64,000 nt of DNA. It comes from a phage. Both the position numbers and the translations under genes were made by a program. The notes under the pieces are model-generated. The model made no database searches and was not told the origin of the DNA. It worked only from the letters and a program-made list of their open reading frames with translations. Where the stretch lies: sequence record NC_101835.1; one strand, given 5' to 3'. Shown here one piece after another: positions 38,469-50,676 of this stretch; within the stretch, counting starts at the first letter, position 1, and each line of letters opens with the position of its first letter.

Positions 38469-38894
38469 ACCCTCATCGAAGCAAACCATGGTGTACTCAA
38501 GCCCCTGATGGTTAAGCTTATCTTGTACATACTCCATATGGCAGTATTTTACAACAGCTCCCTTTTTGCTTCTATCCCACTTGCCAGTGTTCGGATCAAA
38601 CCGTGGAAAAATGAACTTATGATCCTTCTCTCTGAACTTTGGCTTAATGTTTTCAGGCAGATCACTATAAATAGCTACTGCTTTAGGCCATAGTCCACCC
38701 TCACCTTCCAACTGTGGGGTTGTTCTTCGGAACATAACCACAGAGCTGTGGGGGTCATCAATAATTTTAAGTGGCATCAACTGCAAGAGGAACGACTTGC
38801 CAGACCCTGCGGCACCGCCGATTACCAAAATATCTGCATCGTTTTCGAGGATCATCTTCTGCTTTTCAGAGCACGGTCCGTAAATCTTAGACAT
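38469..38894 (-). CDS. terminase large subunit, exon 1 (ATPase Walker A/B)
   Basis: Walker A GGAAGSGKS and Walker B MVCFDEG; frame is closed by a TAA immediately after the Walker B, which is where the intron begins. Confidence 0.7.
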
Positions 38895-39181
38895 TAACCT
38901 CTCTCCTTTGGAAAAAGTGTTCTAATATAGTCTTGCAAAATGATCAATTTAGCTCTATCATTGCTACAAGACAGATTATTATCCCTCATAATGCCAGAAT
39001 TTACTGCATCTGGCGCACCTTTCTTCAAAGGCATAGCTTTAGCAGGTGGTTTCATGGCACCTTCTGGGGGTTTAACAATCAACCTTCCTACATCTGGAGG
39101 GTCAATCTTGTATTCTTTCTCAACACTGGTTGCACACCCACATAATAACAAGCACACAATAAACAGTGTAGCAACTCTCAT
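38894..39181 (-). CDS. o-spanin (outer-membrane lipoprotein, Rz1-like)
   Basis: 95 aa; signal peptide with LLLCGC lipobox-like motif, Pro-rich mature part, C-terminal Cys; 4-nt overlap with the preceding gene. Confidence 0.55.
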   Translation of the reverse strand: MRVATLFIVCLLLCGCATSVEKEYKIDPPDVGRLIVKPPEGAMKPPAKAMPLKKGAPDAVNSGIMRDNNLSCSNDRAKLIILQDYIRTLFPKERG

Positions 39182-39576
39182 CGACCCTCCTGATTGATAC
39201 TCTCATTATAAATATCTATAAGCTGATCAGGGAGTGTTGACTTCTTACCCTCAGGGGATTGGAGGTAAATAATCTGCTTTTCTTTACCTGCCTTCTCAGC
39301 CATATTTAATTTATCCTGTAGGTCAGAAAGTGATTTTTCAAGGTTTTTAACCTCCTCTGCGTGGCCCATTTTAACTTTGTCGGCCTGCTTTTGTTGCTGA
39401 TCAAGGATCCGTTCCCACTTCAACTCTGTTGCTAACACACCTTCTTGGTAGGCTTCATTAAGCTTAGAGTTAAACCAATACACGGCCCCAAGATAAGCTG
39501 TACCTATCGCAGCTGCAAAAAATAAACCTTTTATGATCCCTTTATACCTACTCAGCCATGTTAAAACTGAAATCAT
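39178..39576 (-). CDS. i-spanin (inner-membrane, Rz-like)
   Basis: 132 aa; N-terminal TM helix GIIKGLFFAAAIGTAYLGAVYWF then coiled-coil periplasmic domain; overlaps the o-spanin start. Confidence 0.55.
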   Translation of the reverse strand: MISVLTWLSRYKGIIKGLFFAAAIGTAYLGAVYWFNSKLNEAYQEGVLATELKWERILDQQQKQADKVKMGHAEEVKNLEKSLSDLQDKLNMAEKAGKEKQIIYLQSPEGKKSTLPDQLIDIYNESINQEGR

Positions 39577-39595
39577 TTTAAGGCTCCAGAAACGA

Positions 39596-39632
39596 AAAAA
39601 CCCCGCAGCTATACAGCTAACGGGGCGGGTTA
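39596..39632 (-). terminator. rho-independent terminator
   Basis: CCCCG..CGGGG stem with inner hairpin followed on the minus strand by TTTTTT. Confidence 0.45.
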
Positions 39633-39681
39633 AAATTGAGTAACCTAAATAGATCGAAACTAACTAAAAGGAGACTAATAC

Positions 39682-39951
39682 TTATCGAGGCACTCGGTGG
39701 ATGATTCTAACAGTAACTGCGTTTTCATTCATCAAGTATGCATCTACATCTCTGTAAATATAAAACTTCTGCTCACTATCAACAACACAAGCTACCGCCC
39801 CTTCAGAGTTGTCTTCAAAAAAGACCACCACTGCATCGCAGCTGAGTTCATGATATGACTCTCGAAGATTTACAGCCAGAGGATTGAAATCGTCACGAAA
39901 ATCTACGGTATGGGTTGGATTTACACGCTCTACAATTTTAAGTGTATACAT
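39682..39951 (-). CDS. hypothetical protein
   Basis: Track ORF trimmed to ATG (MYTLKIVERV...) with AAGGAAC RBS, because the upstream part of the track ORF overlaps the tRNA-like 3' half. Confidence 0.35.
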   Translation of the reverse strand: MYTLKIVERVNPTHTVDFRDDFNPLAVNLRESYHELSCDAVVVFFEDNSEGAVACVVDSEQKFYIYRDVDAYLMNENAVTVRIIHRVPR

Positions 39952-48272: not shown

Positions 48273-48528
48273 TCTTGCTAAACCTGTAGAAGCCCACCAG
48301 TTTGACGGAAGCTCTTCATCAGTATCTGATCTGCAACGGTGGATTGATACAGGTGTGTTTACATCGTCACCTGTTCGGACCAGAGATCTTCGTCGCATGT
48401 GTGAGCTTGTCGAGCCTTTTGGTAACCTTGTCCTGTACCAGGGAGATTGGCTAGTTGACTTTATGGGAGACTGGTTGGTAATGAGTAAAGAAGAGATGTT
48501 TAAAATTTTTAAGGAAGAGGCCGAGTAA
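48259..48528 (+). CDS. hypothetical protein
   Basis: 89 aa; ATG with AGGAGG RBS. Confidence 0.35.
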   Translation: MPLFNLAKPVEAHQFDGSSSSVSDLQRWIDTGVFTSSPVRTRDLRRMCELVEPFGNLVLYQGDWLVDFMGDWLVMSKEEMFKIFKEEAE

Positions 48529-49811
48529 TGCATCAAATCAAAACAACACTGTACGCACTGAACAAAGATGGCAGCTACCAACAGTGGAAAGTATTCACTG
48601 ATGGCGAAAAGGTTATCGTAGAGTTTGGCAAGCTTGACGGTAAATTGCAGTACAAAGAGACGGTATGCACACCTAAGAACGTAGGTCGTGCCAATGAGAC
48701 TACAGCTGAGCAACAGGCCGAGCTTGAGGCTATTAGCAAGTGGGAAAAACAAGTCCGTCTGGGGTATGTTGAAAACATGGAAGATTGCGAGCAGGGTGTT
48801 GATCTTTTACCCATGCTGGTGCATGACTACCTGAAGCGTGGCAAGGCACTTAAACTACCTTGCTGGATCTTGCGTAAGTTAGATGGCCTTCGTCTGCTTG
48901 TTGTTTTCCAAAATGGTGAGCCTAAATTTATTTCCCGTGGTAATAAGTCCTACCCTATTCAAGGAAAGCTTTTAGAGCAACTTCGTTCTTTCCATTCTAC
49001 CACTGGGATTAAACAACTTGATGGGGAACTATACATTCATGGTCTTCCTTTGCAGAAAATAGTGTCTCTTGCTAAACGGTGGCGCACACAGGAAGAGATT
49101 CAGGCCGAGATCGATAAAGACTATGAGGCAGATAAAAAACGCCGTCATGCAGCAATTAAGGCAGGCTTATCAACATACAAAAACTTCAACAAGGTAGATA
49201 TTCCTGTCGATGTTGAGCCTGTTCGTGATGATTTGCGTTACGGTGGGTACTGTAGCTACGATCTGGAGTATCACATTTTTGATATTCCTAGCGACAAGGT
49301 GTGGTGGGATCCAGAAACAGAGTCTGGACGCTGCAAGGATCTTATGGATGCAGAGGATACCGTTACCACTCTGATGCTTGACCATATCAAGGTTGTTGAC
49401 GCAGAGCTTGCGTACACAGTTGATCATTGCGAAGAATCTGTTGGTATATTCATGTCCGAAGGATATGAAGGTACTATCATGCGTAATTTCTGCGGTAAAT
49501 ACGAGTACGGTCAGCGAACATCTGAAGCATTGAAATGGAAAAAGTTCAACGACGCAGAGGTGAAAGTTATTGACGTTGAGAAAGATAAGAATGATGAAGG
49601 TGTTCTTATCTGTGTTGACAAGGAAGGTGTTATTGTTAAAATGAAGATGAAAGGCACGCACGAGGAGCGTAGCTATGACAGGATGCAGGAAATGATCGGC
49701 AAGTTTGTCACCTTCAAATATCAATCAAGGACAGAAGACAACAACTACCAATTCCCTGTCGGTATCTGCGTCCGAAATGTTGACCCAGACACTTGGGAGG
49801 TTCTGGAATGA
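48528..49811 (+). CDS. ATP-dependent DNA ligase
   Basis: 427 aa; adenylation motif I ILRKLDGLR (KxDG), downstream OB-fold-like region; TAATG coupling. Confidence 0.7.
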   Translation: MHQIKTTLYALNKDGSYQQWKVFTDGEKVIVEFGKLDGKLQYKETVCTPKNVGRANETTAEQQAELEAISKWEKQVRLGYVENMEDCEQGVDLLPMLVHDYLKRGKALKLPCWILRKLDGLRLLVVFQNGEPKFISRGNKSYPIQGKLLEQLRSFHSTTGIKQLDGELYIHGLPLQKIVSLAKRWRTQEEIQAEIDKDYEADKKRRHAAIKAGLSTYKNFNKVDIPVDVEPVRDDLRYGGYCSYDLEYHIFDIPSDKVWWDPETESGRCKDLMDAEDTVTTLMLDHIKVVDAELAYTVDHCEESVGIFMSEGYEGTIMRNFCGKYEYGQRTSEALKWKKFNDAEVKVIDVEKDKNDEGVLICVDKEGVIVKMKMKGTHEERSYDRMQEMIGKFVTFKYQSRTEDNNYQFPVGICVRNVDPDTWEVLE

Positions 49812-49935
49812 TGTAGGAAGGTTTAGTAGGTAACGGTAGCCAATCGAATGATGGTTTTTCAATTGGCACCTACATAACCACACTGTGTAGTGTTGTTGAT
49901 CTGGTTAGTTATGAGTAAACTGGAGAGTATGAAAA

Positions 49936-50406
49936 ATGAAACTTGATAAAAATGTTCAACGAAAAGCTTTCTTGGATATGATCGCATATTCAGAAGGCAC
50001 AGATAATGGTAGACAACCCACCAAGGATCGGGGCTATGATGTCATAGTTGGTGGCAAGCTGTTTAGCGATTACAGCAAGCATCCAGGTGTGTACGTTAAG
50101 CTAAATGCTAAACTTACCTCCTCCGCTGCTGGGCGTTACCAGGTTTTGGAGAAGTTTGCTAAACACTACATGGAACAGTTAGGATTGCCAGATTTTGGCC
50201 CTGCCAGTCAGGACAAGATTGCGTTGCAACTGATCCGTGAGTGCAAGGCTCTCGCCGACATTGACGAAGGGCGTATCCACGAGGCTATCCATAAATGCCG
50301 TTCCCGCTGGGCTTCGTTACCTGGTGCTGGATATGGTCAGCATGAACAGAAGATTGAGAAGTTGATCGAGGTGTTTAAAAAGGCAGGCGGTGTTGTCCTT
50401 GATTGA
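49936..50406 (+). CDS. endolysin, lambda R-like lytic transglycosylase
   Basis: 156 aa; QRKAFLDMIAYSEGTDNGRQ...GYDVIVGG...AGRYQ...WASLPGAGYGQHE collinear with lambda R across the protein, including the catalytic SEGTD glutamate. Confidence 0.85.
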   Translation: MKLDKNVQRKAFLDMIAYSEGTDNGRQPTKDRGYDVIVGGKLFSDYSKHPGVYVKLNAKLTSSAAGRYQVLEKFAKHYMEQLGLPDFGPASQDKIALQLIRECKALADIDEGRIHEAIHKCRSRWASLPGAGYGQHEQKIEKLIEVFKKAGGVVLD

Positions 50407-50469
50407 TCATTGACATAACCACACGGACGTGGTATTGTTGCCTCATAAAATGTTTAGGAGGGTTTAACC

Positions 50470-50676
50470 ATGAAAGATTTTCTGTTAGCAATTTTGTTCA
50501 TGGCAGCATGTCTGGCCTGTGGTGTCGTGTTTGCAGGTGAAACAGCGTATCTTGTCGATGTATATCGGGACAATGGTAAACGTATTTGCCTTTATGAGAC
50601 AAGCCAAGGTGAGCTCTACGAGCTTGTGAAACAAGGCGAGGCTGGATCTTGTCCTCGCACCCATTTCTTTGAATGA
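50470..50676 (+). CDS. small secreted/membrane protein
   Basis: 68 aa; N-terminal hydrophobic signal-like segment LLAILFMAACLACGVVFAG; follows the endolysin; good RBS. Confidence 0.35.
   Translation: MKDFLLAILFMAACLACGVVFAGETAYLVDVYRDNGKRICLYETSQGELYELVKQGEAGSCPRTHFFE

Follow-up and report, generated by a model that had tools for sequence, protein, structure and literature searches.

The lysis genes of rV5-like phages have been described in the papers on rV5, LL12 and CB7, where the spanin genes lie by the terminase gene and away from the endolysin gene, and where the holin was left unidentified. The lysin of rV5 is Gp89 according to the rV5 paper, both rV5 spanin families (i-spanin and o-spanin) are included in the spanin survey (PMC6139136), and in the CB7 paper the terminase-side spanins were likened to those of VP4 and SP6, and their stop/start overlap to that of T4. 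Here, the lysis genes of a phage DNA stretch of 64,000 nucleotides (NC_101835.1, referred to as the window) were compared with these systems. An earlier reading of the letters alone (the original prediction) held that a spanin pair and an endolysin are dispersed in this DNA, that no canonical holin is adjacent to either, and that the steps of lysis are, as a consequence of the split, under separate temporal control. The window is from an rV5-like (Vequintavirus) coliphage, with 38.4-51.2 kb being 97-98% identical over 97-99% of the length to many genomes. Its layout is, with high confidence, the ordinary and previously described lysis-gene organisation of Vequintavirus (rV5-like) myophages, dispersed by history. 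The scattered arrangement, including the missing holin, is already published for rV5, LL12, CB7 and PVP-SE1; what appears to be new, from sequence comparison, is that the block of spanins and large terminase subunit (TerL) is kept in three genera and that the endolysin of lambda-R type is confined to Vequintavirus and its near relatives.

All genes named in the original prediction were found in place (Table 1), with the spanin and endolysin loci ~10.4 kb apart on opposite strands. The minus strand is coding up to ~45.1 kb, with the structural and terminase genes, the tRNAs and part of the early genes, and the plus strand beyond it (nucleotide and DNA metabolism), and the GC skew switches at the same place. 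The same genes are labelled as spanins and, apart from them, as endolysin in the GenBank/RefSeq records of Murica, rV5 and MiataMamis. Compared with rV5, LL12 and Murica (endolysin gp89/gp90, i-spanin gp66/67, o-spanin gp65/66), the genes, their order, strands and coupling to TerL are the same and the proteins are 96-100% identical; the TerL intron is shared with rV5 and LL12, and the differences are at strain level only. A contiguous, co-transcribed lysis cassette is absent from the window, and no holin-endolysin-spanin cassette is annotated anywhere in the rV5 reference, so the complete cassette elsewhere that was to count against the original prediction does not appear in that annotation.

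Table 1. Positions of the lysis genes, holin candidates and adjoining elements, with the evidence for each.
Feature	Position	Strand	Evidence
i-spanin, 132 aa	39178-39576	minus	phrog_4297 'Rz-like spanin', E=2e-48; single N-terminal transmembrane domain
o-spanin, 95 aa	38894-39181	minus	phrog_1267 'Rz-like spanin', E=1e-22; lipobox
Lambda-R-type endolysin, 156 aa	49936-50406	plus	PDB 1AM7/3D3D; phrog_90 endolysin, E=3e-56
Sigma-70-like promoter, TTGACA-17-TATTGT with TG	50410-50438	plus	consensus scan only
Predicted secreted periplasmic mini-protein precursor, 68 aa	50470-50676	plus	phrog_4641 (function unknown); ten-homologue alignment; AlphaFold2
Membrane protein, 104 aa (rV5 ORF31)	800-1114	minus	phrog_5345 (function unknown); one transmembrane domain, about residues 5-27
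ORF29/phrog_1322	rV5 NC_011041 20937-21203 (~350-600 bp past the left end of the window); L013 3801-4052; L014 3818-4078		
Terminator-like intrinsic hairpin, CCCCG..AGCT-GTAT-AGCT..CGGGG, then T6	39595-39625	minus	read directly
TerL exon 1	38470-38894	minus	collinear with intronless Murica TerL, 98.5% identity
TerL exon 2	36464-37579	minus	97.9% identity to Murica TerL
Group I intron in TerL, 890 bp	37580-38469	minus	Rfam RF00028, 50.3 bits (threshold 50 bits), E=6.5e-11
HNH homing-endonuclease gene inside the TerL intron	37660-38250	minus	

Spanin pair, endolysin and a second hydrolase

The two minus-strand genes beside the terminase gene are, on their sequence features, a two-component spanin pair. 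In the i-spanin, a basic tail with R10, K12 and K16 precedes one transmembrane domain (TMD) at about residues 14-35 or 17-35 (hydropathy scan), which gives the N-in/C-out (type II) orientation and is kept in the orthologues of PVP-SE1 and Hena1 (29-31% identity). The periplasmic domain reads as charged and heptad-like, with a C-terminal DIYNES motif that is invariant across three genera, and the protein has no Cys; it is labelled i-spanin or Rz-like spanin in Murica, rV5 and the BASEL phages. The o-spanin signal is MRVATLFIVCLLLCG, with the cut before C16 and Ala at +2 (outer-membrane sorting); the lipobox is L-C-G-C16, and a Pro-rich linker follows. L13, G15 and C16 do not vary between this protein and its orthologues in PVP-SE1 and Hena1, and the +2 residue is A, Q or T. 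The o-spanin has a single periplasmic Cys, C72, in line with the spanin survey, where ~96% of pairs carry one or more periplasmic Cys for a homotypic disulfide. PHROGs was informative for both proteins; the Pfam and NCBIfam scans gave nothing above threshold for either.

C72 is absent from the o-spanins of PVP-SE1 (2863-3153, L009) and Hena1 (2887-3171, L010), and the i-spanins of these two phages also have no Cys; the pairs, being without any periplasmic Cys, therefore fall within the ~4% of exceptions to the 'universal disulfide' rule.

The spanin genes are consecutive, not nested as in lambda Rz/Rz1. Read from the sequence, the i-spanin stop and o-spanin start overlap in ATGA (4 nt), the o-spanin stop and TerL start overlap in TAATG, and a Shine-Dalgarno sequence stands before each start of the block; i-spanin, o-spanin and TerL exon 1 thus read as translationally coupled. 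The pair had been placed next to 'terminase exon 1', and the wording was right, since TerL is split by a group I intron. The terminator-like hairpin lies 18 nt 5' of the i-spanin ATG, and the same element is recorded as a 'terminator' in Murica (L001 4132-4156).

Two structures of lambda lysozyme matched the endolysin, 1AM7 (E=3.4e-56, residues 4-154) and 3D3D (E~4e-56), and the enzyme is 61.6% identical to lambda R over 151 aa. The homology runs the full length and takes in the catalytic Glu; the active-site motif SEGTDNG (Glu in SEGT) aligns with lambda R, and the record of one homologue is labelled 'glycoside hydrolase family 104'. Here too PHROGs and PDB were informative, and Pfam-A and NCBIfam gave no match above threshold. 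No hydrophobic segment, signal or signal-anchor-release (SAR) sequence was seen in the hydropathy scan (N-terminus MKLDKNVQRKAF), and the enzyme is therefore predicted to be soluble and holin-dependent. The DNA ligase gene lies upstream, and the 68-aa open reading frame (ORF) and the HNH, exonuclease and RNase H genes lie downstream, so the location among replication genes is borne out. Relatives' records label the gene as an endolysin.

That this is the only recognisable endolysin was correct for the window, but not for the rV5 genome. A second peptidoglycan hydrolase, rv5_gp002 (NC_011041 1980-2480), adjoins rIIA outside the window; it is annotated 'endolysin / cell wall hydrolase' and has a cleavable-looking N-terminal signal peptide and a sub-threshold SleB match (E=1e-12). 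According to the CB7 paper, SleB-like homologues occur in all Vequintavirinae genera, CR3_087 among them having been implicated in lysis, and in Certrevirus a holin candidate with two TMDs lies beside the SleB-like hydrolase. The secreted SleB-like hydrolase could on these grounds be the functional lysis enzyme and the lambda-R-type enzyme an accessory; this was considered quite unlikely, because the lambda-R-type enzyme is intact, is at least 88% identical across rV5-like records and is close to a proven endolysin, while no TMD protein flanks the SleB-like gene in rV5.

Three comparison systems share parts of this arrangement. In lambda, the endolysin R is 62% identical and the two-component spanin logic is alike (one type II protein in the inner membrane and one lipoprotein in the outer), but in the window there is no cassette, the o-spanin gene is not embedded as Rz1 is in Rz, the neighbouring genes include no S-like holin, and no sequence similarity of the spanins to Rz/Rz1 could be detected (no Pfam match). 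T4 is likewise a large virulent myophage in which the endolysin, holin and spanin genes are unlinked and the spanin genes are separate, not embedded (PMC6139136). Its i-spanin has no Cys and cysteines are present only in the o-spanin, as here, but there is no sequence relationship and the T4 spanin genes lie away from the terminase. The T4 endolysin is a T4-type lysozyme, not of the lambda-R type, and the T4 holin is known. In the podophages SP6/K1-5 and Vibrio VP4, as far as Summer et al. 2007 is reported in the CB7 paper, the spanin genes adjoin the large terminase gene as they do here, but they belong to unrelated groups of phages, whose spanin families differ.

Candidate holins

Apart from the 68-aa ORF, no gene with a transmembrane segment flanks the spanin or the endolysin locus, which agrees with the absence of a canonical holin beside either. 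The 68-aa protein itself had been proposed as a holin, and this proposal did not survive comparison with its homologues. When ten homologues were aligned, conservation was lowest in the hydrophobic N-terminus, which ends at a conserved small-x-small/G site (VFA/GE); the mature part of 45 residues is highly conserved and includes two invariant Cys. In the AlphaFold2 model (predicted local distance difference test score, pLDDT, 81.6), a signal helix is followed by a four-stranded beta-meander. A fold search of this model in PDB and BFVD returned generic small beta-meanders or barrels and uncharacterised secreted phage mini-proteins, with no functional clue. Reading the protein as a lipoprotein (Cys14, Cys17) was rejected, as those Cys are absent from the homologues. 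Because the signal peptide is variable, carries a conserved signal-peptidase I site and has non-conserved Cys, no TMD is expected in the mature protein, and neither the stable TMD nor the cytoplasmic charged tail of a holin is seen. Alignment and model thus indicate a secreted periplasmic mini-protein and not a holin. Other members of this family of secreted mini-proteins (phrog_4641) lie at L008 2965-3183 and L011 4001-4204.

Some features do fit a holin or a membrane-anchored antiholin: the 68-aa gene is directly downstream of the endolysin gene, the N-terminal segment is hydrophobic, and the adjacency has been retained in a lineage in which both proteins are diverged to ~63-64% identity. 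Such a role was nevertheless regarded as scarcely credible, given the variable, cleavable-looking hydrophobic part, the predicted soluble and conserved mature part, the lack of any match to a holin family, and a gene neighbourhood that can be uncoupled from the endolysin. The 68-aa gene apparently has a sigma-70-like promoter of its own, which lies between the endolysin stop and the 68-aa gene at the position of the predicted 'P90' of the rV5 record (endolysin/ORF90), and in SSBI34 a homologue occurs in the same neighbourhood with no endolysin. The 104-aa membrane protein, also named in the original prediction, is still a candidate, although a holin at the end of the tail-fibre sub-operon was rated as unlikely. 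The protein (ORF31, 'membrane protein, 1 TMD' in rV5 Table S3) is small and has an acidic N-tail, the TMD, a basic flank and a charged, helical C-terminal domain of 75 aa; small size, at least one TMD and a charged C-terminus are necessary in a holin, but far from sufficient. Its gene is on the late structural strand, and full-length homologues extend across the subfamily (223 records, 22-34% identity), the same range as that of the spanins (195 records). The gene is always directly 3' of the tail-fibre assembly gene, as seen in Hena1 and PcCB7V, a position matching that of T4 t, which follows gene 38. Against this, no holin family was matched in Pfam, PHROGs or NCBIfam (XhlA, 15.8 bits against a cut-off of 34.7 bits), and the predicted topology, N-out/C-in with a long helical domain in the cytoplasm, is unlike that of any characterised holin class known to us. 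Its fixed place in the tail-fibre module would suit a fibre-assembly or accessory role equally well, and there are other candidates, ORF129 and ORF29/phrog_1322.

ORF129 of rV5 is a textbook class II-like holin candidate that is genus-restricted and lies 22.5 kb downstream of the endolysin gene, beyond the window end. ORF29/phrog_1322 (86-88 aa) has two hydrophobic segments and a charged C-tail and belongs to the tail-fibre module; it is 46-56% identical across Vequintavirinae genera and 35-42% in Phapecoctavirus, and in none of the 368 records is it labelled a holin. In Hena1 and PcCB7V the ORF29 homologue follows the 104-aa homologue and a polytopic membrane protein of ~155 aa. For none of the holin candidates did Pfam or NCBIfam give a match above threshold. 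Several other small TMD proteins (ORF114, 131, 155, 170, 183 and 200) were seen in a hydropathy scan of rV5 (45-138 kb). A speculative and rather improbable reading is that the conserved, disulfide-bonded, secreted 45-aa mini-protein is a new periplasmic lysis regulator (an antiholin-like sensor or a murein-enzyme inhibitor), and/or that a tail-fibre-module membrane protein is a new holin. Were this true, the inhibitor would protect the infected cell from lysing too early or from lysis from without, and the 104-aa protein or ORF29/phrog_1322 would be the holin of the subfamily, of a type unrelated to described families.

Neighbouring elements and database records

The TerL intron is absent from Murica, in which TerL is uninterrupted; TerL introns have been reported for rV5 and LL12, and TerL is annotated in three pieces in rV5, against the one intron of the window. 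The window further differs from rV5 and Murica in an extra HNH cassette that disrupts tRNA-Pro. This tRNA-Pro(TGG) is split on the minus strand (39998-40420), with the first 25 nt at 40396-40420 and the last 45 nt at 39998-40042. The 353-bp insert (40043-40395) is almost entirely an HNH endonuclease ORF (40044-40385, 113 aa), and the sequence CGCCTGA (7 nt), which covers the end of the D stem and the 5' anticodon stem, is gone from the tRNA. At 39998-40420 no tRNA-Pro was called by ARAGORN and no intron by Rfam; the tRNA-Pro is intact in Murica and rV5. A self-splicing intron was rejected and the insert was taken as a disruptive insertion, because there is no Rfam group I intron, the ORF nearly fills the insert and 7 nt of the tRNA are lost. 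A further tRNA-like gene of 99 nt (40589-40687, minus strand) was given a four-base anticodon 'atcc' and no amino acid by ARAGORN (Rfam tRNA, 35.5 bits), and its Murica homologue is labelled 'tRNA-OTHER (Asp|Gly)'.

The closest database matches include 'Campylobacter phage' records (C7, C9, A112b, C15 and others; host Campylobacter jejuni). As these are 97-98% identical to E. coli rV5-like phages, the entries are suggested to be mislabelled or contaminant.

History, timing and meaning of the dispersed layout

Homologues of the i-spanin were found subfamily-wide at 25-32% identity, in phages of Salmonella, Klebsiella, Erwinia, Cronobacter and Proteus. PVP-SE1 (Seunavirus) and Hena1 (Henunavirus) have the tRNA cluster, i-spanin, o-spanin and TerL in this same order, and among these two and the window there is no variation in the lipobox, in the Pro-rich linker or in the C-terminal motifs of the two subunits. 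For the endolysin, all homologues at 88% identity or more are in rV5-like records, after which identity drops to 62-70% in small temperate or sipho phages that have an annotated holin alongside; a homologue at 64% identity is present in a more diverged, related metagenomic lineage. PVP-SE1 has a different, modular endolysin, gp146, and CB7 uses yet other endolysins (CB7 paper). Since the spanin-TerL block is fixed across three genera while the endolysin has been swapped, the dispersal is attributed to history and not to regulation, and the distribution suggests non-orthologous replacement of the endolysin.

The opposing view, in which the lysis functions are split between separate loci so that each step can be timed by its own transcription, starts from real differences. 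The two loci are on opposite strands and in different transcription units, the endolysin arm has many sigma-70-like promoters, and the spanins are coupled to late morphogenesis genes. A search of the whole window for the late-type motif TGGTAAAATA, with one mismatch allowed, gave 19 matches against 6.0 expected; 14 of the 19 are minus-strand matches no further along than 38.6 kb. The loci are probably transcribed differently, and transcription of the endolysin may well precede that of the spanins. As a reason for the split, this timing is unlikely. Neither a dedicated promoter nor the late motif was found directly upstream of the spanins or the endolysin, nor was the motif found directly upstream of rV5 ORF129, and a literature search for Vequintavirus transcriptomes gave nothing usable. 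In T4, e, t, pseT.3 and pseT.2 are likewise unlinked (PMC6139136), and a spanin-TerL linkage that is kept, beside an endolysin that changes from genus to genus, points to history and not to design. The timing of transcription would also not order the steps, as a soluble endolysin is harmless before holin triggering and spanins are inert before murein degradation. In lambda and T4, endolysin and spanins accumulate beforehand, and the order is post-translational, from holin triggering through peptidoglycan degradation to spanin release. Because it is set by holin triggering and substrate dependence, this order is independent of gene linkage or separate transcription, and the separate temporal control of steps that had been deduced from the split modules lacks support.

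The motif matches lie mainly on the minus strand, from 740 to 38554, which is the coding strand of the structural region. A putative late-promoter motif, TggTAaAAtA, was proposed in the rV5 paper, and the enrichment of TGGTAAAATA in the structural region therefore supports it.

Four points weigh against the interpretation of an ordinary Vequintavirus layout dispersed by history. No complementation or transcript-timing experiment on these particular genes was found in the literature; the promoter for the spanins and TerL is uncertain because of the terminator-like hairpin so close upstream of the i-spanin; lysis need not depend solely or mainly on the lambda-R-type enzyme, since rV5 has the second, secreted SleB-like hydrolase; and the acquisition scenario for the endolysin comes from phyletic distribution, not from phylogeny.

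On this interpretation, lysis would proceed by the following scheme, in which the steps themselves are borrowed from lambda and T4, and the protein identities and features come from the window. The spanins would be the first two cistrons of a terminase/portal late operon, translationally coupled to TerL, and the soluble GH104 lytic transglycosylase would be supplied from 10 kb off, on the opposite strand in the DNA-metabolism arm, with the holin encoded elsewhere. By homology with lambda and T4, folded endolysin would build up in the cytoplasm while spanin complexes span the periplasm, restrained by intact murein. The unlinked holin would then trigger and let the endolysin out, the murein would be degraded and the spanins freed, and the spanins would fuse the inner and outer membranes. 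The spanin-TerL block would be ancestral and fixed, and the endolysin a replaceable module that apparently came out of a lambdoid-type holin-endolysin cassette and left the holin behind.

In large virulent phages such as T4 it is normal for lysis genes to be dispersed, and the observation itself adds nothing new. The holin is the point of practical interest, as these phages are in wide use in therapy and biocontrol, and its candidates have been narrowed: the 68-aa protein is out, and the 104-aa ORF31 protein, ORF29/phrog_1322 and ORF129 are left. The linkage of spanins and TerL across three genera is an aid to annotation.

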